DNA from: an uncultured Acidobacteriota bacterium
GTDB lineage: Bacteria; Acidobacteriota; Thermoanaerobaculia; UBA5066
Assembly: GCA_963779415.1 (NCBI GenBank)
Contig: CAVZYA010000002.1
Span: 1,600,001-1,664,000, forward strand
Length of the DNA: 64,000 nt
Direction: 5' to 3'
The position numbers and the translations under genes are program-made. Positions 819 to 62,407 of this stretch are shown here, in pieces. Every line of letters starts with the position of its first letter. Position 1 is the stretch's first letter. Under the pieces are notes generated by a model, which was not told the origin of the DNA, did not search any database, and was given only the letters and a program-made list of their open reading frames with translations.

Positions 819-2140
819 TCAGAAGCGGAAGGTCAACCCCAGAAGGCCGCGGAACTGCCGTGACGTATCGTCCCGGATCTGCTCCGCCGTCATGAAGAGC
901 GAAAAGGGGCGGGAGATGTTCACGACGCCCGAGAGCGCGTACCGCTTCGAGTGCGGGTGGCTCTGGACCACGAGGCCGTCGGCCGTCGTCATGCTGAGGG
1001 TCGAGAGCGACGTCGTGTAGTCGAGCGTCAGATAGACCTTCGGGCCGAGGTTCCGGCCGATCGAGGCGTAGAGCGAGTCGTAGGCGCCGCTCGACGGCTG
1101 GTTGTAGCGGTTGTCGCTCGCCGTCAGGTCGAGGCCCGACCCGAAGACGTTCATCGCGGAGATTCCGGCCTAACACCTCGGGTAGGTCCGCCGACCAGGC
1201 TGCTCTGTTCCTGCGAGTAGCCGCCCCAGATCCGGAGGTTGCGGAGCGGCTCGATCGTCACGCGGCCGCCGAGGGATCCGTAGAGGAACCCCTGGAGGGC
1301 CTGGGGGTCGACCGGCCTCCCGTTGAGGACGTCCTGCGCGATCGAGCGCGTGTCGATGGAGGTGCCGTGGTGATAGAGCCCCTGGAACTCGAGCCACGGC
1401 GTGGCCCGGTAGCGCGCGTTGACGAAGATGTAGGTCAGCTTCGCGCCCCCGCCGCTGCCGGCCGGTCCCGTCGTGTCGATCTCGGCGGCCTGATAGAGGA
1501 AGAAGTCCCTGCCGACGGGGATGAAGTTCAGCATGGTGATGACGACGCTCGGTCACGGTCTGGTCCCGGATCTGGACGTAGCCGATGACGTTCTTCCACC
1601 CGTTCTCGCCGTCGAGGGCGACGTAGCCGCCGTACTTCTTGACGCCGCTGACGTAGCCGACCTGATAGAGATCGGGCTCCATGCCGCCGAAGAGGCCGAG
1701 GCGAACGCGCCAGGGCCCCGTGGAGCCGAAGGGCTGCGCCTCGAGGTTGAAGCCGCCGACGGAGCCGAGACCGCCGATGTCGTTCAGCCACATCTGCCCG
1801 ACGCGGAGACCGACGCTCCCGCCGCTCACGTGCCCTCCGACCCAGGCGTTGAAGAGCTGAGGCGGTTGGGCTGTCCGTTGACGGAGGGGTACGCGGCGCC
1901 GCGCGCGTCGAGGCCGTACTCGAATCCGCCGTCGTCCGCCGGCTTCGACACGAGGGAGACGTAGGCCGAGGTCTCGCTGAACGTCGAGCTCGGGCCGCCG
2001 CCGGTCAGGGAGGTCTGCTGGTAGCTCCCGAAGAGGGTGACCTGCCCGTACCCGGACTGCGACTGGGCCCCGGAGCGCGACGCGGAGCCGGCCGCGGCCA
2101 GGAGGAGCGCGAGGAAGACGAGTCGGCGTCTCCCCGTCAT
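819..2140 (-). CDS. outer-membrane beta-barrel protein (putative porin of a porin-cytochrome conduit), frameshifted in this sequence
   Basis: ATG at 2140 overlaps the cytochrome stop (TGATG). Signal peptide MTGRRRLVFLALLLAAAGSA. Gly/Tyr/Ser-rich alternating strands across ORFs 1826-2974, 1170-2240, 1151-1534 and 819-1154. Ends GLLGLTFRF (terminal-Phe beta-signal). Confidence 0.75.
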
Positions 2141-5100
2141 CAGCCGCCGCGCCCCGTCGGGTGGCAGGAGTAGCAGGCCTGCGACTGGTAGACGTAGCCG
2201 GCCCGGCCCTGGTGCTGCTGGGCGGTTTGGGCCTGCCCATGACACGTCAGGCAGGTGAAGACGGCGTAGTTCGACGGATTCGTATGGCAGTTGGCACAGA
2301 CCCCGCCGGCGGAGCCGTGGTTCGTGGGGAACCAGGTGTGGTTGAAGACCGCCTGAAGCCACGAGGTGTCCGAGAACTTGTGACAGGTGTCGCAGGTCGT
2401 CGGGAAGGCGGCGGCAACGTGGTTCACCGGGGTGGTGGCGGTGTTGTAGTCCCTCAGATGGCAGGCGGAGCACGGGCTCGTGGGCACGCTGGTGAAGTTG
2501 TTGGCGCTGGGGGCGTACGGCGGGTTGTGGCACTGGCTGCAGGGCGCGGTCGCGTGCGCGCCGGCGAGCGCGAAGTACGTCGAATGGTTGAAGGCCGTCG
2601 CGAGCAGCCAGGTCGGCGTCCGTGTTCTTGTGGCAGCTGTCGCACGTCGTCGGCAGACCGGCGTGGTTCACGGGTGTCGCGGCGGTGGCGAAGTCCCGCA
2701 TGGTGGCAGCCGAAGCAGGTCGTCGGGACGGCGGAGTAGTTGTTGGCGGACGGGGCGTACGGCGGGTTGTGGCACGTCGGCGCACGCCGTCGTGGCGTGG
2801 ACGCCGACGAGCGGGAAGGTCGTGTGGCTGAACGTCGCCGGCGAGCCAGGTCGCATCGGAGAACTTGTGGCATGTGTCGCAGGTCGTCGGGAAGCGCGAC
2901 GCGATGTGGTTCACCGGCGTCTTGGCGTTGTTGTAGTCCTTCAGATGGCAGGCCGAGCACGGGCTCGTGGGCACGCTGGTGAAGTTGTTGGCGCTGGGTG
3001 CGTACGGCGGGTTGTGGCACTGGCGCAGGGCGCGGTCGCGTGCGCGCCGGCGAGCGGCGAAGTACGTCGCAATGGTTGAAGGCCGTCGCGAGCAGCCAGG
3101 TCGCGTCCGTGTTCTTGTGGCAGCTGTCGCACGTCGTCGGCAGACCGGCGTGGTTCACGGGCGTCGCGGCGGTGGTGAAGTCCCGCAGGTGGCAGCCGAA
3201 GCAGGTCGTCGGGACGGTCGGAGTAGTTGTTGGCGGACGGGGCGTACGGCGGGTTGTGGCACGTGGCGCAGGCCGTCGTGGCGTGGACCCCGACGAGCGG
3301 GAAGGTCGTGTGGCTGAACGTCGCCGGCGAGCCAGGTCGCATCGGAGAACTTGTGGCATGTGTCGCAGGTCGTCGGGAAGCGCGGCGGCCACGTGGTTCA
3401 CGGGCGTCGTGGCGGTGTTGTAGTCCTGCTGGTGGCAGGCCGAGCACGGGCTCGTGGGCACGGTGGCGAAGTTGTTCGCGCTGGGGGCATAGGGCGGGTT
3501 GTGGCACTGGGCGCACGGCGGCCGTAGCGTGCGCGCCCGCCAGCGCGAAGTACGTGTAGTGGTTGAAGGCCGTCGCGAGCGACCAGGTGGCGTCCGTGTT
3601 CTTGTGGCAGCTGTCGCACGTCGTCGGCAGACCGGCGTGGTTCACGGGGGTCGCGGCGGTGGCGAAGTCAGGCTGAGTGGCAGCCGAAACACGTCGTCGG
3701 GACGGTGGAGTAGTTGTTGGCGCTCGGGGCGTACGGCGGGTTGTGGCACGTGGCGCACGCCGTCGTGGCGTGGACCCCGACGAGCGGGAAGGTCGTGTGG
3801 CTGAACGTCGCGGCGAGCCAGGTTGCATCGGAGAACTTGTGACATGTGTCGCAGGTCGTCGGGAAGGCGGCGGTCACGTGGTTCACCGGCGTCGTGGCGG
3901 TGTTGTAGTCCTGCTGGTGGCAGGCGGAGCAGGGGCTGGTGGGCACGGTCGCGTAGTTGCCGCTCTTGTGGCAGTTGGCGCACGCGGTCGTCACGTGCGT
4001 TCCCGCCAGCGGGAAATACGTGGAATGGTTGAATGTCGACTGTGACCTGCCACGTCGCGTCGGCGAAGGCGTGGCAGGTCTCGCAGGTCGTCGCGAAGCC
4101 GGCATGGCTCACGGGCGTCGTGGCGCCCGTGGAAGTCGGTCATGATGGCAGGCGGAGCAGGGGCTGGTGGGGACGGTCGTGTAGTTGCCGTTCTTGTGGC
4201 AGTTGGCACACGCCGTCGTGACGTGCGTTCCGGCCAGCGGGAAGTACGCGGAGTGGTTGAAGGGCGACTTCACCTGCCAGGTCGCGTCGGCGAAGGCGTG
4301 GCAGGAGTCGCAGGTCGTCGGGAAGCCGGCGTGGTTCACGGGGGTCGTGGCCCCCTGGAAATCCGTCTGATGACAGGCCGAGCAGGGAGTCGTCGGGACG
4401 GTCGTGTAGTTGCCGCCCTTGTGGCAGTTGGCGCACGCCGTCGTCACGTGCGTTCCCGCGAGCGGGAAGTACGTGGTGTGGTTGAAGGGCGACTTCGCCT
4501 GCCAGGTCATGTCGGAAAAGGCGTGGCAGCTCTCGCATGTCGTCGGGAAGCCGGCGTGGCTCACGGGCGTCGTGGCGCTCTGGAAGTCGGTCAGGTGGCA
4601 GGCCGAACACGGGCTCTTGGGGACGGTCGTGTAGTTCCCCCCCTTGTGGCAGTTGGCACAGGGCGTCGTGAGGTGTGCTCCCGAGAGTGGGAAGACGGCG
4701 TGGGACGTGAACGTTCCCTGCTGCCATGTGGCGTCGGAGTACTTGTGGCAGGTCTCGCACGTCGTCGGGAAGCCGGCGGCCACGTGAGGCGGATTGGTGG
4801 AGTTCTGGAAGTCGGCCATGTGACAGGCCGAGCAGGGGTTCATCGGGACGGTCGTGTAGTTGCCGCTCTTGTGGCAGTTGGCGCACGCCGTCGTCACGTG
4901 CGTCCCCGCAAGCGTGAAGTACGCGGAGTGATTGAAGGTCGACTTCTGCTGCCACGTGGAATCGGTGAAGGCGTGGCAGGTGTCGCAGGCCGTCGGGAAG
5001 CCGGCATGGTTCACGGGAGCCGTGGCGCCCTGGAAATCGGTCAGGTGGCAGGTGTAGCAGTCGCGGGGAGTCCCCTTGTAGACACCCCCCTTGTGGCAGC

Positions 5101-7810
5101 TGGCGCAGGGCGTCGTCGCATGCACGCCGGCCAGCGCGAACGTAGAGTGAACGAAGGTCCCCTGCATCCAGGTGGCATCCGCGAACTTGTGGCAGGTCTC
5201 GCACGCCGTCGGGAAACCGGCGGCGACGTGGTTCACGGGAGTCGTGGCGGTCAGGTAGTCCTGCTGGTGGCAGGCGGCGCAGGGGCTTGTCGGAATGGTC
5301 GTGTAGTTGCCGTTCTTGTGGCAGTTGGCGCAAGGGGTCGTGGCGTGGGCGCCGGCGAGCGGAAAGACCGTCGCGTGATTGAAGGTCGCCATCATCCACG
5401 TGGCGTCGGAGGACTTTGTGGCAGGTGTCGCAGGTGGTCGGGAAACCGGCGGCGACGTGATCGGGATTCTTCGCTCCCTGGTAGTCCTTCGCGTGACATG
5501 AGTAGCAGTCGGTCGGGGCCCCCGAGAAGACGTTGTTCTTGTGGCACTGGTTGCAGCCGGAGCGTCGCGTGCGCGCCATTGAGCGCGAAGCCGGTCTGGG
5601 CTCCGTGGTTCCAGAGAACCGCCGTCCACGAGGTCGGCCGGTGGCACTGAGCGCAGTCGCTCCCGAGGGCCGTCCGGTAGAGGTCGTCCTGACGCCGGAT
5701 CCAGTGGCAGTCGTAGCAGGTGTTCGGGGTCCCCTTGTAGACGCCGTTCCAGTGGCACGAGGCGCAGGGGACGGCGAGATGCTGCCCTTCGAGCGGGAAT
5801 TCGATCGACTTGTGAAAGGCCCGAGTTCGCCGTCTTCCAGAGAGACATGTCGTGGCACGACGCGCAGTCGCTTCCCAGCTTGCCCCGATGCGGGTCGTCG
5901 TGGCAGCGCTGGCAGTCGGAGGTCGCGAGGCCGGTGAACTTCACGGCCGTCCCCGTGCCCGCCGGGAACGACCCCTCCACTTTCCTGTGGCAGAGGCGGC
6001 ACTCCGCCGTCGCGTGCTTGTCGACGAAGAACCCCTTCGTCGCCGGGTTCTGGTGCCGGTAGCTCTTCACCTCGAACGTGGCCGTCGTGTGACAGGTCTG
6101 GCAGGAGGTTCCCAGCTGGCCGAGGTGGACGTCCTTGTGGCAGCCGGCGCAGTCGGACGGGGAGCCCCTTCAGGCGGATGGCCGTGCCGCTGCCGGCCGG
6201 GAAGGTGCCGGTCTCCTTCCTGTGGCACTTCCCGCAGTCGAGCCCGACGTGCTTTCCGGTCAGGGGGTATTTCGTCGTCGAAGTGGTCGAAGCGGAAGGG
6301 ACGGCGAACTTCGCGACGTCGACCTTGTGGCAGCTGGCGCAGTTCGTGCCGACCTGCCCGAGATGCGGGTCCTTGTGGCAGGTCGCGCAGTCGAGGGGGA
6401 TCCCCTTGAACTTCCGGACCGGGACGGTCCGGCCGGCTCCGAGGGAGACGGAGCCCGCCGCGGCGTCGGCGCCGTGACACTTCTGGCAGGAGACCGTCGC
6501 GTGCTCGCCGCCGAAGAACTCGGGAAAGCGGGGGTGCCGGTAGGTCGTGACCGCGAAGGTAGCGGCGGTGTGGCACGTCTCGCACGTCGTTCCGAGCTGT
6601 CCCTTGTGAGCATCGACGTGGCAGGAGGAGCAGAGAGGACGCGCCCCGCGGAAGTCCACCGTCCGTCTCGCGGGAGAGAGCGCCGGCCTGCGGAGCCGCC
6701 CCCTTGTGACACGCGGCGCAGGCGAGCGGAGCGTGCTTGCCGGCCAGCGGGAACTTCGTCTTTGCGTGGTCGAAGGTCCCTCCCTTAAAGCCGGTCTCCT
6801 TGTGGCACGCACTGCAGTCCTGCGGCTTGAAGATCCCCGCGTGCGGGTCCTTGTGGCAGTCGGCACAACGTGCGTACTTCAGGTGGACCTTGGTCGCGGG
6901 CTGGACGTGACAGGAGGCGCAGGGGAAGCGCCGCGTGACGACCGACGAGGGCGTAGCCGGTCTTCGCATGGTCGAACTTCACGGGGGGGGTCGCCGCACC
7001 GGGCACACCCGCCGCAGCCCCGGCTCCCGCCGCGGCGGCAGCCGCTGCGCCCGATCCTCCGGCCATCCGGAAGGTCGCGGTCGTGTGGCAGGTGGAGCAG
7101 GCGCCGAGGGGCTTCGCGTGCGGGTCCTTGTGACAGTCGACGCAGGACGCGAACTTGATCCCCTTCCAGACGTTCGCCACGTGACACTTCTCGCAGGGGG
7201 TCGCGACGTGGGCGCCGGTCAGCGGATAGGACGTCTTCGAGTGGTCGAAGACCTTCCGGGTCTCCTTGAAGGCGACGGAGACGGGGTGGCAGGTCGCGCA
7301 GGAGGTGCCGAGCACCCCCTTGTGCGGATCGGCATGACACCCGGCGCAATCGGGCTTCGCCGTCAGGAATGACCGGGTCTTGTGGCACTTCGCGCAGTCG
7401 AGCCCCTTGTGCTTCCCGTCGAGGGGAAAGCCGGTTTCGCCCGCGTGATCGAACGTCGCCGTATTCAGCCGGCGGGTGTCGGTGTCGACCCCCGCGTGCT
7501 CGACATGGCAGGAGACGCAGTCCTTCGCCGCGTCGCGGTGGACTCCCTTCCGGGCGGCGATCCGCTCGGCGATCGGCTTGTGACATTCGAGGCACTTCGC
7601 CGTCGTCACGCGCTTGCCGGGCTCGTGGCACTTCTGGCAGTTCTCGAGGCCTTCCAGCCTGGCGTGTGCCACGGGAGAGGGGCCCGGGCGAGACGAGAGA
7701 GCCGAGCCCCTGCGCCGAGCCCGTCCGGGCGAAGCCGACGAGCGCGAGCAGGGCGAGAGCTGCCGCGGGCGCGAGAGGCGAGCGGCCGGGTCTTTTGCAG
7801 AGCTCGCTCA
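2140..7810 (-). CDS. giant multiheme cytochrome c (~72 CxxCH, ~1,880 aa), broken by many frameshifts; start approximate
   Basis: Continuous CxxCH triads stitched from ORFs 6785-7672, 6067-6969, 4140-6866, 4109-6070, 3668-4105, 2941-3828, 2454-3461, 1826-2974 and 2140-2487. N-terminal signal-like LALLALVGFARTGSA then QGLGSLVSPGPLS. C-terminus ...CYSCHPTGRGG-stop at 2140. Confidence 0.88.
2340..3900 (-). repeat. about three near-identical ~487-bp intragenic tandem repeats, each encoding a hexaheme unit
   Basis: cacgggctcgtgggcac recurs at ~2471, ~2958 and ~3445; each unit encodes NPPYAPSANN...PTSPCSACH...FPTTCDTCH...TTCDSCH. Confidence 0.8.
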
Positions 7811-7826: not shown

Positions 7827-8681
7827 TCAGAAGTGCAGGGAGTAACCCATGTAGATGGCGAGGGCGACGTGGACGGCGGCGATGGCGAACATGACGTAGA
7901 CGAGGGGCTTGTGGAAGACGTGCCACAGATCGAATAGCTTCTTCGTCCGGCCGAGGTTGGCCATCCGACGGACGAGGAGCGAGCGCTCGGCGTCGAGGGC
8001 GGCGACCTCCTCGTCCATCGCGTGCGAGCCGCCTGCCAGAAGCGAGGCCTTCTCGGCGCGCCGCTTGAGGTCGTCGATCCGTTCGTGGATCTCGTCGAGG
8101 GAGAGCTCCGTTCCCGGATCGATCGGGGAATCCGGACGTAAAGGTAGCGGCCGACGAAGCCCGAAAGGACGACGAGGACCATCGACCAGTAGGCGACGGA
8201 AATGATCCCGTTGAACTTGAAGGAGGTGTGGAGGGTGATCAGCGCGGGACCGACGACGCCGCAGAAGATGTGGAAGTCGAGCCACCGCCTGGTCGAACCG
8301 CGACGGACGAGGGACGGGACTTTCTTCCGGATGACGTAGGGAAGGGTCAGGAGCATGAGCCCCGCGCCGGTGATTCCGAAGAGGAGCCCCGCCGTTCCGG
8401 AGGGGCGCAGGAGCCGGTGCGCTTTCTCCTGCGCCGCGGAGGGAGAGCGGCGTCGCATAGTAACGAAGGCCCCCGAGGCCGAAGAAGGCGAGTCCTCCGA
8501 GGAGCACGACGACGACAGTGACCAGGACGAGGACATGTCCGAAGGGGGATGGCGGGATCCGGCCTGTCGGCTTCGGGTCCGAAGCTGTCTTCGAAGATTC
8601 GTGCGCCTGGTCACCGGGCGACATCCGTGTGACGGGCGTCACGGAAGCCGACGTCCGGGACATCGCGGCCGTCGTTCTCAT
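7827..8681 (-). CDS. integral membrane protein with paired His (putative heme-b, ferric-reductase-like TM domain), frameshifted
   Basis: Stitched from ORFs 7827-8681 and 7808-8614: TM helices with WLDFHIFCG, LITLHTSFKF, WHVFHKPL, AAVHVAL. Confidence 0.7.
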   Translation of the reverse strand: MRTTAAMSRTSASVTPVTRMSPGDQAHESSKTASDPKPTGRIPPSPFGHVLVLVTVVVVLLGGLAFFGLGGLRYYATPLSLRGAGESAPAPAPLRNGGAPLRNHRRGAHAPDPSLRHPEESPVPRPSRFDQAVARLPHLLRRRRSRADHPPHLLQVQRDHFRRLLVDGPRRPFGLRRPLPLRPDSPIDPGTELSLDEIHERIDDLKRRAEKASLLAGGSHAMDEEVAALDAERSLLVRRMANLGRTKKLFDLWHVFHKPLVYVMFAIAAVHVALAIYMGYSLHF

Positions 8682-8801: not shown

Positions 8802-10051
8802 TCACGCTTCGATCGTGCAGTTGGTCCGGGCCCAGGCGACGCAGGGGTAGATGTAACCGCCGTCACGGTCCTGCTCGTCCAGTACGGGGGCGTCACAAGC
8901 GACGTCGCCTTCGACGACCCGGGTCCGGCACGACTGGCAGACGCCCGCCCGGCAGGAGAAGGGGATTTGGCGCCCCCCGCTTCGGCGGCCTCGAGGATCG
9001 TCCTCCCGGGGGGGATGCGGACGGTCCGGCCGGTGATGGCCAGCCGCAGGTCGACGGGCTCCGTGGCCCCGGCCGGAGCCGAGGCCGAGGCGACGGCGGC
9101 TTCGAACGCCTCCGCGCGCACTTGCCTGTCGGGGACGCCGAGGGAGGCGAGAAGCTCCTTCATCCCGTCGATCATCGGAAGGGGCCCGCAGATGCAGTAG
9201 ACGGCGGTGGAGGGAAGTCCGGTCAGGCGCCGGATCAGCTCTCCGTCGACGCGCCCGCGATGGAGGCCGGGACCTCCTTCACCTCTCGTCACGGCGACGA
9301 CGACGCGGGCTCCCGGATGGCGCCGGGTGAATGTCAGCAGCTCGTCCCGGAAAGGGACGTCGGCCTCGGTCCGTACCGAGAGGACGAGCGTGACCTTTCG
9401 CTCCGGCTCGGCAGAGGCGGCGTGGCGCAGCATGCTGATGAGCGGGGTGATCCCGACGCCGCCGGCGAGGAGGACGAGCGGTCGCGGGTCTCCGGCGGGA
9501 TAGACGAATGGGCCGGCGGGCTTGCGGACGCGGAGGAAGGAGCCTCGCCGGGCCTTCTCGTGGAGAGCGCCCGAGACCAGCCCCTGCCGCTTCACGGAGA
9601 TCTCCAGAAAGTCGCGGCTCTCCGGGGCCGAGCAGATGGAATAGCAGCGGACCAGCGGTTTTCCGTCCACGGGGAGCTGGACCGTCAGGAACTGTCCGGG
9701 CTTGAATTCGAAACCCTTCGGGCGCCGAAGCCGGAAAGTCCGGATGTCCTCGGTCTGATCGACGGTGCCGAGAACCTTCGCCTCGACCCAGCCCGGCTGC
9801 AGGGGAAGGGGAGGAGGGAAGGCCTTCTCGCACGCCCCGAACCAGAGAAGGTGGGCGACGAAGAGGGCGGCGAGGCCGCCGTACGTCGGGAAGATCCAGG
9901 GGAGAGCGGCGACGGCGAAGCCGGGAAGGGCCCAGAGCGAAAAGCGGTGTGGCCAGCTCCGGTGGCGGCGCAGCATCGCCAGCGCGACGTGGACCGTCGA
10001 GGCCGCGGCGAGAAGGGCCGAGGAAACCGGGACCGTCAGCACGAGAGGCAC
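8802..10051 (-). CDS. FAD/NAD(P)H-binding ferredoxin reductase with C-terminal 2Fe-2S domain and N-terminal TM segments
   Basis: RCYSICS FAD motif, GGVGITP and CGP NAD(P) motifs. After a frameshift near 8968 it reads IPFSCRAGVCQSCR...YPCVAWARTNCTIEA-stop (8802). Hydrophobic N-terminal ~75 aa. Confidence 0.88.
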
Positions 10052-10392: not shown

Positions 10393-10845
10393 ATGGCCGA
10401 TCCGGAGGAGTGGAAGGCGAAGCTGAGGGCGCTCGGGATCCGCCGCCCGCGCCTGCCGCGAGCGAGGCGGGAGCCCGACCGGCGGAAGCTCGAAACGGGC
10501 GCGGGGGGCGAGGAGCTTGCGGCGCGGCATCTCGCCGAGGGGGGCTGCTCGATTCTCGACCGGAACGTCCGTTACCCGGGGGGCGAGCTGGATCTCGTCG
10601 CGGAGGAGGGGAGCGACGTCGTCTTCGTGGAGGTCCGGACGCGGCGGACGGACTCCTGCGGCGGCGCGCTCGAGTCGGTGACGGCGAGAAAGCGCGGGCG
10701 CGTCGTCAGGGCCGCGGAGATCTGGCTGGCGCGTCATCCGCGGATGAAAGCGCGTCCCGTCCGGTTTGACGTCGTGGCCGTGGAGGGGAATCCTCCCGCC
10801 GTGACTTGGCTCCGTGGCGCCTTCGACGGCAAGGGGCGGGCGTGA
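10393..10845 (+). CDS. yraN: YraN/UPF0102 family endonuclease-like protein
   Basis: [12 protein letters not shown]...[13 protein letters not shown]...VFVEVRTR...RFDVVAV motifs. Confidence 0.88.
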
Positions 10846-12920
10846 GCGTGCGGGGTGGGATGCTGGGGCGTTACCGCCTCGGGGCGCTCCTCGGGCGCGG
10901 CGGGATGGCCGAAGTCTACCGGGCCGAGGACACGCGGCTCGGCCGACCGGTGGCGGTGAAGGTGATCCTTTCCGACCACGCCGCCGATCCGGGCTTCGTG
11001 GAGAGGTTCCTTCGCGAAGCGCGGCTCGTGGCCTCGCTCGAGCATCCGAACATCCTCCCGGTCTACGACTTCGGCGAGGAGGAGGACGCCCCTATCTCGT
11101 GATGCCGCTCCTCGACGGCGGGACCCTTCGCGACCGGATCGAGGGCGGGCCGGTGCCCTCGCGAAGGCGTCGGTCTGGATCTCGCAGCTCGCGGGCGCTC
11201 TCGACGCGGCGCACGAGGCCGGCATCCTGCACCGCGACGTCAAGCCCGCGAACGTCCTCGTCGGAAGAGGGGAGCGCGTCTTTCTCGGGGACTTCGGCAT
11301 CGCGAAGATGCTGGAGACGATCACGGGCCTCACGGCGACCGGAATGGTGATGGGGACGCCGGTCTACATGGCTCCCGAGCAGGCGCAGGGGCGGCCGGCG
11401 ACGCCCGCGACGGACCGGACTCCCTCGCCGTCGTCGCGTACGAGATGCTCGCGGGAAGGCCGCCGTTCGAAGGGGAGAGCCCGCTCTCGCTGATGCACCA
11501 GCACGTGGCATCGCCCGCTCCGGCGCTCTCGACGAGGGGTCCGGGCCTTCCCCGCGGCCTCGACGCGGTCTTCGCGCGGGCCCTTTCGAAAGAGCCGGCC
11601 GAGAGGCACGCCACCTCCGAAGAGTTCGCGGCCGCCGTCGAGGCCTTCGCGCCGACGGGCGCGACCGGTCCCTTCGAGCCTGCGATTCCCTCCGCGACCG
11701 CGCCGACGATCCGTGCGCCGGGGCGCCTCCGCTCCGTGACGACGCCGCCGTCGAGCCTGACGAGCGACGAGACAATCGTCACGGGAAGGGGGACGAGAAA
11801 GAAGAAGCCGCGGCGTGGCCTTCTCGCGGGCCTGGGATTCGCGGCGGCGCTTTCGGGAGGATTTCTACTTCTGAGGGGGAAGGAAAACGCCCTCCCATCC
11901 GGGGCCGGTGCTGAACAGAAGGCCACCTCCGTCCATGCGGCAACGCCGGAAGATTCTTCGAGAGTGAGAGAGCCCCGGATCGCTGCCTCGCCTCCGCCGT
12001 CGAACGCTTCAGCGCTGCCCGCATCCGATTTACTTTCCGGGAAATCTCCGGTGGTTCCCCCTTCTTCCGACGCCGAAGAGAAGAAGATCGCCGAGCTGGA
12101 AGCGCGGCTGAAGAAGGCGGAAAAGGAGATCGCCGAGGAGTCCGGTGCCGCGAGGTCGATCGTCCCGGCGTCGCCACCGGCGCCGGCGAGCGTGCCGGTC
12201 GCCTCCGAGCCCCCGGCGGAGAACGTGCCGAAGAACGCCGGCCTGCGCGGACTCCGTCCCGCCTTCGAGCGGCTCGATCCGTCGAAGAAGCCGGACGCGC
12301 GGCTTTCGCAGGCGGACTTCGAGTTTGCGGTGGAAAGCGCGCGCCGCGCCTGAAGGGGGATCCCGACCTCCGGGCGGCGCGTTTTCTGGAGATCCTCGGC
12401 AGCGGCGGTCTCGGTCTTACGTCGCTCGTCGCGACGGCGCGGCCTCCCAGGCGGTGCTGGAGGCCTTCGCGTACTCGAAGCGGGTGACGCAGAAGGACAT
12501 CGGTCACCTCGCCTTCCTCGTCCGCAGGCGGGGCGGGGCGATCGTCGCGCCGACGGGGTGGGAGCTTTCGCTCGCCTACGGGGACGCACGGGGGAAGCCG
12601 AGGGGCTTCTCGCCGAGGCGCTCGCGGTACGGCCGAACGATCCGAGGGCGCTTCTCGGCCGGGCCTACCTCCGTCGGATCCAGGGGCGAATGTCCGAGTC
12701 GATTGCCGATCTCCGGCACGCAGTCCAGGCGAACCCGACGCCCGTGGTTCGGCAGGGAGTCCTCGAGGTCCTTCGGACGGAGTGCCGCAGCGGAGTGGCG
12801 GAGGCCTGCGCGGAGGCCGAAAGGATGGCCGCGGCCGCTCCCGAAAGCCCGCGCCGCCGCCTACCCGCCGCGAAAGGGACCGACCCTCCGCGGCTTGACA
12901 CCGCGCGGACCCTCCTCTAG
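10842..12920 (+). CDS. Ser/Thr protein kinase with TM helix and C-terminal TPR-like region, frameshifted
   Basis: [25 protein letters not shown] and [10 protein letters not shown] in successive frames; [21 protein letters not shown]; TPR-like [13 protein letters not shown] in ORF 12558-12920. Confidence 0.75.
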
Positions 12921-12923
12921 ATT
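12895..12923 (+). promoter_or_regulatory. sigma70-type promoter for tRNA-Gly
   Basis: TTGACA (12895-12900), 17-bp spacer, TAGATT (12918-12923), 28 bp upstream of the tRNA. Confidence 0.75.
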
Positions 12924-12951
12924 GCGCCTCCCGGGCGCCCCGGCGCCCTGC

Positions 12952-13026
<75 letters not shown>

Positions 13027-49367: not shown

Positions 49368-50418
49368 GTGAGAGGAAACCTCGGCGTGAGCTTTGTTCTG
49401 GCTCTGGCCGTCGCGACGCTTCCGAAGGCGGCCAGCCCTCAGCAGGTCGAGAAGAAGGACTGTATCTTCCTTTCGAGCCTTCATCAGACGTCCCGCGGAA
49501 TGGGTTACTGGTACGACAAGAAGAACGGCGGCCTGGAGATCGCTCACCGGTGTTCCCTACTCGGAGTTGAGCTGCAAGAACTGTCACGTCGCCTCGTGCG
49601 ACGGCTGCCACAGGACGGAGATCGGGGGCAAAGCCGGGTATTCCACGAAGGCGGCGAAGGATCAGGGGCTCTGTCTGAAGTGCCACGGCCGCGAGGCCGC
49701 GACGATGAAGACGGACAAGGCCCAGAACCAGGTAGACGTCCACGTTCAGGCCGGCCTGCAGTGCATGGACTGTCACACGGGGAGCGACGTCCATGGCGAC
49801 GGCTCCGAGTACGCGTCGATGAAGCAGCCCGGGGCGATCGCCCCGAAGTGTGAAAACTGCCATGCAAAGGTGACCCGGAGCCTGTCGCACACGGTCCATT
49901 CCGGGAATCTCGACTGCAAGGCGTGCCACGTGCGCCAGGTCGTGAGCTGCACGAACTGTCACTTCGAAACGCTCGTCAAGACGGGCCAGCGTGTCTCCGT
50001 TCCCATGTCCGGCTGGATCTTCCTGATGAACGGAGACGGGAGGGTGACTTCGGCGAACATGCAGACGTTCGTCGTGCCGGGCAAGAAGACCTTCCTGATG
50101 TTCGCCCCCCAGTTCAGCCATTCCGTCACGAAGAACGGGAGGCGCTGCGAGGAGTGTCACGCCACGGAAGCGGCCGCGGAGGCCCGGTCGAAGAACGTGA
50201 AGCTTCTCTGGCTCGACAAGGGGGGAGTGCAGCAGGCCAAGGGCGTGATCCCCGTGGCGGCCGGCGCCCGTTACGGGCTCGTGTTCCAGGACTTTCAGGA
50301 CGGGAAGTGGAGCGTCATCGAGAATCCGGCGGAGCCGGTGATCCACTATGCCGGCTTTGGCGAACCGCTTTCGGACGCCCAGCTCGCGAAACTGGCGACG
50401 CCGCAGAAGATGAAGTGA
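49368..50418 (+). CDS. periplasmic octaheme cytochrome c (one frameshift near 49545)
   Basis: RBS AAGGAG, signal peptide; CKNCH, CDGCH, CLKCH, CMDCH, CENCH, CKACH, CTNCH, CEECH. Confidence 0.85.
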
Positions 50419-56668: not shown

Positions 56669-56755
56669 TTCCCGCACCGGCGCGGAGTTGTCCGGCCCGG
56701 CGGGCAAGCTGAGACGAAATCTCGATTAATATCCGTTCATGAAGAGATCGACGAG

Positions 56756-62407
<5,652 letters not shown>

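Follow-up and report, generated by a model that had tools for sequence, protein, structure and literature searches.

Introduction

The locus described here raises the question of whether a single polypeptide can conduct electrons across the whole bacterial cell envelope. The stretch of DNA analysed, hereafter the window, comprises 64,000 nucleotides of an uncultured Acidobacteriota bacterium of the class Thermoanaerobaculia (assembly GCA_963779415.1, contig CAVZYA010000002.1, positions 1,600,001 to 1,664,000), and its minus strand carries, from about 7810 to 2140 with an uncertain start codon near 7810, a giant gene for a cytochrome c. Sequence comparison indicates that the new part of this system is a fusion, in which the periplasmic and the outer cytochromes of the conduit type termed PCC3 are joined in one 72-heme chain.

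PCC3 was recognised in genome sequences in 2017, and the localisations of its components are only predicted. As far as the accessible text of the cited papers goes, it was defined by a barrel, an extracellular cytochrome (median 34 hemes, up to 85), a periplasmic cytochrome (median 21) and an inner-membrane protein (IMP) bearing SGXXG and two WX3HX13H motifs (He et al. 2017, PMC5566968). Periplasmic proteins of 21, 24 and 27 hemes were described subsequently (Hoover et al. 2023, PMC10734462), a constant 24-heme cytochrome accompanied by a variable larger one had already been noted in Burkholderiales (PMC7399161), and the function of the complex is treated as open (PMC11429942). A natural fusion shows how the two cytochromes connect and, moreover, points to a barrel-binding segment of about 80 residues, so that the complex becomes testable with a small construct.

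Heme Count and Integrity of the Gene

In the six-frame translation of the window, 70 CxxCH motifs are directly visible across three frames with 17 frame switches, as compared with 0.26 on average and never more than 2 when the region was shuffled 200 times. The intact orthologue of genome G003, which belongs to the same genus, is 99% complete and encodes 72 motifs and 146 histidines in a single frame of 1,867 amino acids, served as the reference for an alignment that tolerates frameshifts; this alignment covers 1,891 residues at 71% identity and recovers 72 CxxCH motifs and 0 in-frame stops. The estimate of about 72 motifs in about 24 triheme modules, made previously in a sequence-only reading of the window, thereby becomes 72 hemes in 24 modules; other relatives display 48, 51, 54, 60 or 63 motifs in a single frame. 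That reading had also named two ways in which it might fail. A division of the gene by true stops into several smaller cytochromes is excluded for this lineage by the intact orthologue and the stop-free alignment, and the repeat copy number is not an assembly artefact because no two modules of the window gene are identical (maximum 97%) and an independent genome has the same count.

Relative to G003, the window gene contains 24 internal frameshifts (22 of +1, one of +2 and one of -1), corresponding to 4.2 per kb as opposed to 0.31 per kb in 69 background genes. This roughly 13-fold excess, which reaches into the barrel and cytochrome b genes, is what speaks for a cluster decaying into a pseudogene, that is, a dead copy of a real family. 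Such decay is very unlikely, given that 1,891 codons are devoid of stops and 72 of 72 motifs are kept, that the +1 bias equals the error pattern of the genome at large (18 of 29 frameshifts in the background genes), that the density peaks at 7.0 per kb in near-identical repeats, and that the extra base is missing from the contigs of close relatives near 3056, 3072, 3221, 3325 and 5412, among the rows listed. Hence, the frameshifts look like uncorrected long-read sequencing error. As a separate observation, a kinase-like gene at 10806-12970 (+) of the window is broken over several frames next to intact neighbours of 1.4-2.4 kb, errors being clustered gene by gene.

Two Unequal Arms and a Conserved Module at Their Junction

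The chain can be divided into a part A (modules 1-8), a junction module (module 9) and a part B composed of repeats and a C-terminal cap (modules 10-24). Each heme occupies 25.9 residues in the G003 chain, and the three additional histidines formerly proposed for most triads hold with one conserved exception at module 9: exactly six histidines occur in 18 of the 24 G003 modules, five in modules 1 and 9, and seven in modules 2, 4, 11 and 24. Among 82 complete proteins, taken from the 120 best hits of an N-terminal query, the total motif count is a multiple of three in 79. Upstream of module 9 there are 24 hemes in 76 proteins and 21 in the other 6, while 21-57 hemes are found from module 9 onwards. 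Six genomes recovered with a C-terminal query likewise have 24 or 21 hemes before module 9.

In 75 aligned proteins, module 9 features 18 non-Cys/His positions conserved to at least 90%, versus 4-15 in the other modules examined. Its loop histidine is present in only 11 of these proteins, whereas each of ten other modules has it in all 75. The two arms also differ systematically: 85-89% of modules 5-8 contain inserts (spacing of at least 24), which are absent from all 615 B repeats, the mutual identity of modules is 41% in A versus 70% in B, and part B is lower in Lys+Arg and higher in Thr+Ser+Asn than part A in all 75 proteins. The latter shift resembles the description of PCC3 extracellular cytochromes (PMC5566968). 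A model of modules 8-11 (predicted local distance difference test, pLDDT, 73; predicted template modelling score 0.46) had no structural match by Foldseek and VIA, which neither shows nor excludes a new fold, and a sequence search of the PDB returned 0 hits.

Relation to PCC3

For comparison, 38 of 79 loci from a motif scan were examined and 33 analysed as PCC3 loci; they stem from genera on the list of He et al. or from its family (Bradyrhizobium, Aquabacterium, Methylotenera, Gallionella) and stand in for the type loci of Sideroxydans ES-1 and Leptothrix cholodnii. All of them encode a cytochrome b and a homologue of part A with 18-27 hemes, the second cytochrome being separate. The gene order is the same as in the window, and so is the ratio of about 26 residues per heme, which at 25.9 falls within the PCC3 range of 22-39. 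Low-complexity repeats rich in Thr, Ser, Ala and Gly typify PCC3, and those of the present system conform in Thr, Ser and Ala, though not in Gly. The cytochrome b, at about 300 residues with SGXXG and both WX3HX13H motifs, is homologous in 33 of 33 loci (E 1e-43 to 1e-29). The barrel, modelled from G003 with 22 strands (pLDDT 67), matches generic barrel folds only in a structure search and is distantly homologous to the proteobacterial ones (hhalign probability 89.7, E 1.8e-6). The periplasmic cytochrome of PCC3 has its homologue in modules 1-8, whose 24 hemes lie within its 21-27, though as a domain and not as a separate protein. From module 9 on, the chain matches the second cytochrome that is separate elsewhere, and a module-9-like first module opens that cytochrome in 31 of 31 cases with at least 15 motifs and an intact start.

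On the other hand, none of the 33 loci, which are mostly proteobacterial, has the cytochromes fused. Only the first module of the outer cytochrome is common to both forms, since the proteobacterial protein continues with another, single-heme repeat and lacks the C-terminal cap. Furthermore, the barrel is about 415 residues long here versus 740-875 codons, and an FNR-type reductase takes the place of the Fe-S flavoprotein encoded at 31 of 33 loci. Judged by homology, the window system is PCC3-related but lacks one defining feature, namely the separate gene for the outer cytochrome. The sequence-only reading had overlooked that the protein belongs to this published conduit type, as the homologous cytochrome b, part A and barrel reveal.

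Fused and Split Forms

The barrel profile matches 22 of 400 other genomes of the phylum, and the 20 loci inspected comprise 3 fused and 7 split forms, along with 10 that are cut off, ambiguous or equipped with more distant cytochromes. In the seven split Acidobacteriota loci, A, which has 23-24 motifs except for a miniature with 6, is encoded apart from B, and B begins with its own signal peptide followed by module 9; stand-alone proteins starting at module 9 make up 6 of 119 shorter database hits. Within the class, a junction query matches 35 of 200 other genomes, 27 of which have module 9 fused in frame; the remaining 8 matches are partial only, with no signature seen in the two inspected. 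The named relatives of this class are Thermoanaerobaculia, and the fused form may therefore be relevant to how uncultured Acidobacteriota respire metals or humics. In the cytochrome tree, three split forms are nested among fused ones (support 79 and 88), a nesting that the barrel tree does not resolve, so that either fusion or fission may have come first.

The occurrence of split forms with the same module 9, together with two secretin genes in the genome, could be taken to mean that the chain is cut after export or acts as a two-chain PCC3, B leaving through a secretion system and module 9 docking from outside. This is highly improbable, because modules 8 and 9 are joined by a conserved linker, as short as those between other modules and devoid of any signal-peptide-like stretch.

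Plasmid searches yielded the split cluster in Emticicia only, other matches being partial. The cluster on plasmid pEMTOL02 of Emticicia oligotrophica, like those of other Acidobacteriota, shares all four homologous parts, the same triheme B repeat and the C-terminal cap with the window system, but distributes the hemes over two genes (23 + 40 motifs) and has a longer barrel; no function is described for it in the literature searched.

Several further arrangements were observed. In G024 (L031:7239-13388), part B is split inside a module: the first chain ends in F-x-H, and the motif that follows begins a second gene, which has a signal peptide of its own and supplies 35 histidines for 18 hemes (2n-1). 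Splits of this kind, again with 2n-1 histidines, are present in P0021, P0031, P0036, P0066 and P0121, the last with 71 histidines for 36 hemes. Such splits suggest that cross-chain histidine ligation joins the two cytochromes, and G024, whose chains are apparently linked by a terminal histidine, shows that pieces of the chain can assemble non-covalently, so that more than one export route is conceivable. At the lower end of the size range, G313 (L059:5778-8643) is a miniature in which the barrel gene lies between cytochrome genes for 6 and 12 hemes, and G570 (L226) is a fused miniature with only 6 hemes before module 9; both are good candidates for expression.

Predicted Complex with the Barrel

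When the G003 barrel was modelled with residues 498-872 of the cytochrome (modules 7-11) and 4 hemes, the complex score was 0.70, compared with 0.00 for the best of three controls, and three runs agreed in at least 87% of contacts with a partner pLDDT of at least 71. The score mark is reached by 116 of 157 solved versus 2 of 215 mismatched pairs, figures that hold only roughly here since alignments and ligands differ from the calibration. Confident contacts arise from residues 661-741 only, corresponding to module 9 and the start of module 10, and involve 18 of the 22 strands, for the most part at every other position and from rim to rim; the best contact pairs lie at the first and last strands, the strand orientation assuming periplasmic barrel termini. 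Among five modules offered, the model chose the one already singled out by conservation and by the fusion point. The prediction supports binding of module 9 in the barrel lumen. H231 of the barrel lies in the predicted interface, but a histidine occupies this position in 36 of 44 close barrels; a barrel histidine as the missing ligand of module 9 is only a lead.

A Proposed Single-Chain Conduit and Its Alternatives

A cytochrome b of the ferric-reductase type beside an FAD/NAD(P) protein constitutes the FRE/NOX layout, which moves electrons outward; the input side of the cluster therefore suggests export from NAD(P)H. We consider it somewhat more probable than the contrary that the system is a PCC3-type trans-envelope conduit in which the periplasmic and outer cytochromes form one polypeptide threaded through the outer membrane, exporting NAD(P)H electrons. 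In this scheme, electrons would pass from NAD(P)H via the FNR-type flavoprotein to the inner-membrane cytochrome b, along modules 1-8 across the periplasm, to module 9 at its predicted position in the lumen of the 22-strand barrel, and on to modules 10-24 outside, where the cap would provide the distal contact for an extracellular acceptor. For threading, either the slim B modules would pass through the barrel or the barrel would close around module 9, with the insert-bearing modules 5-8 acting as a stopper. The gene, its cluster, the fusion point, the near-fixed part A, the variable length of part B and the histidine counts can be read directly from the sequences compared; we infer the placement of the two arms on opposite sides, the direction of flow, the acceptor and the mode of threading. 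The more specific proposal of a single polypeptide of 45-81 hemes threaded through its own barrel, with a near-fixed 24-heme periplasmic arm, a histidine-lacking lumen lock at the barrel seam and a variable repeat arm setting the reach, stands in our view at an even chance.

By analogy with GSU1996, in which a triheme module measures 2.5-3 nm, part A would be 20-24 nm long and the rest about 40 nm. The mean width of the periplasm is given as 17 nm (PMC11492766), near the estimate for part A. A single-chain wire spanning the periplasm and beyond had been anticipated from the window alone; the single chain, the near-universal bis-His ligation and a possible span are supported, the latter by the predicted position of module 9 in the adjacent barrel, while the uniform array gives way to a two-part fusion with a histidine-lacking junction module. 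If true, the chain would represent a non-polymeric nanowire that runs without a break from the inner membrane to a point tens of nanometres beyond the cell. The fusion would then establish the head-to-tail topology for all members of the PCC3 family, and an undescribed route for heme-loaded modules across the outer membrane would be implied. With part B outside, matured heme modules would leave the cell by the dozen, either through the 22-strand barrel or around it, and the length of the wire could change by repeat number.

Several points weigh against this conduit. We know of no route for about 45 heme-loaded sites through a barrel. The complex output consists of contacts and does not state the sides on which modules 8 and 10 emerge, and the model may reproduce the arrangement solved for MtrAB, even though neither sequence nor fold comparison gave a match to that system. 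The distal 18 hemes of G024 are encoded by a separate gene with a signal peptide, and such a distal chain therefore needs periplasmic assembly or separate export. Part A is not strictly fixed, a 6-heme version being fused in G570 and separate in G313; its constancy could stem from modules too diverged to expand, and the N-terminal query favours full-length A parts in the 82 proteins, which are mutually related. In four genomes (G002, G003, G004 and G024), the locus has an eroded cytochrome b or none. Lastly, PCC3 is without demonstrated function in the accessible text of PMC5566968 and PMC11429942.

Alternatively, module 9 might plug the barrel from the periplasm with both arms inside, B storing or laterally spreading electrons and the histidine-lacking heme of module 9 serving as the outward redox site. 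No export of folded heme modules would be needed, the missing histidine sits in the very module bound by the barrel, and the separate distal chain of G024 carries a Sec signal. Nevertheless, we regard a plug as unlikely, because the contacts cover the whole height of the lumen, B is systematically unlike A in its composition and slim modules, and the separate PCC3 counterpart is predicted to be extracellular (PMC5566968).

The direction of flow in the threaded conduit is a further matter, since a heme wire as such has no direction. The same architecture, with which this alternative overlaps, might conduct inward and oxidise an extracellular donor, as first proposed for PCC3, which was defined in Fe(II) oxidisers (PMC5566968). 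Inward flow appears somewhat unlikely, as the FRE/NOX-like input favours export and oxides of Fe and Mn are reduced by a cultured representative of the class, although the accessible text of PMC8528874 attributes this activity to another cluster.

Other Cytochrome Systems and Chain Size

In MtrCAB of Shewanella (PDB 6R2Q), an outer-membrane barrel likewise houses a cytochrome, and an outer cytochrome follows on its far side, but the cytochromes are separate decahemes and it is the periplasmic one that fills the barrel; comparison with the window cytochrome gave no match in sequence or fold (E 0.96). Membership in MtrAB/MtoAB, which combines a DmsE-family decaheme with an MtrB-type barrel, was rejected at 64 bits for TIGR03508 versus a cut-off of 192, with no NCBIfam match for the barrel. 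The c7 polymers of the GSU1996 type share tandem triheme bis-His modules, and Pfam Cytochrome_C7 scores above its cut-off. Their ligand order is H,H,C,H,C,C, as opposed to H,H,C,C,H,C here; with no structural match and 27.7 bits for TIGR04257 against a cut-off of 40, this assignment was dismissed as well. The cytochrome-barrel clusters with NHL-repeat and PPIase genes reported from the same class (PMC8528874) and those with 8-13 hemes (Fiorito 2026, bioRxiv 10.64898/2026.05.27.727921) appear to be other systems. In the literature searched, with subscription papers largely outside reach, no description of the fused form or of a barrel-binding module was found.

The exceptional size initially ascribed to the protein does not stand, 72 hemes being ordinary for the family. 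In print there are 85 motifs (PMC5566968), 113, cited as the record (PMC11492766), and 116 (Fiorito 2026), and a record is likewise precluded by stand-alone B-type single chains encountered in this analysis, which contain 112 (P0006), 115 (P0007), 94 (P0013) and 97 (P0020) CxxCH motifs. Single chains of 18-81 hemes in Anaerolineales (L088, L123) have related N- and C-terminal caps, no module 9 signature and no barrel hit, a pattern repeated in P0102 (93 hemes) and P0109 (87 hemes).

Gene Cluster and Genomic Surroundings

The features of the cluster are compiled in Table 1. The genes lie on the same strand in the order FAD/NAD(P) oxidoreductase, cytochrome b, cytochrome and barrel, which recurs in relatives; sources named for close homologues are Thermoanaerobaculia, Holophagales and other Acidobacteriota.

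Table 1. Features of the 72-heme cytochrome and its gene cluster (window coordinates).
Feature	Position	Strand	Remarks
Signal peptide, Sec-type	7713..7810	-	Recognised by eye from basic and hydrophobic stretches and a cleavage site before Gln
Part A, modules 1-8, 24 hemes	5852..7712	-	Lys/Arg-rich; homologue of PCC3 periplasmic cytochrome; long inserts in modules 5-8
Module 9, fusion point	5641..5851	-	Most conserved; third distal His usually missing; predicted in barrel lumen
Part B repeats, modules 10-23	2380..5640	-	Compact, Thr/Ser/Asn-rich; copy number varies in relatives
C-terminal cap, module 24	2140..2379	-	Conserved; similar cap closes Anaerolineales chains without module 9 signature
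Outer-membrane beta-barrel	819..2140	-	22 strands in model of G003 orthologue; 3 frameshifts here; no Pfam/NCBIfam match
Inner-membrane diheme cytochrome b	7827..8681	-	Ferric-reductase-like, PCC3 IMP; two WX3HX13H and SGxxG; 2 frameshifts
FAD/NAD(P)-binding oxidoreductase, FNR type	8802..10051	-	C-terminal [2Fe-2S] motif frameshifted (read by eye)

An ESM Atlas search with the barrel returned only clusters of hypothetical proteins, and a cluster look-up for 20 distant barrels gave one taxon name. The genome of the window encodes cytochrome c assembly proteins in addition to the two secretins. In G003 (L021:12127-15040), the cytochrome b adjoining the intact 72-heme gene is a 78-codon remnant, and about 1 kb upstream lies a gene in which an FNR-type reductase is joined to a cytochrome b resembling formate dehydrogenase gamma. 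The latter type of cytochrome b is also present in G004 and G024 (L023, L031), and it is possible that it replaces the input module of the conduit in these three genomes.

Farther along the window, a separate octaheme cytochrome (49462-50415, +) adjoins a redoxin gene, and a 1,906-residue open frame (56687-62404, +) combines a Ser/Thr kinase, an AAA ATPase and a family 5 solute-binding domain. The source genome harbours 16 other clusters with at least 4 motifs, one of which (G000:C3:386538-388950) encodes a 20-motif cytochrome pair that is MtrA/MtrC-like by eye.

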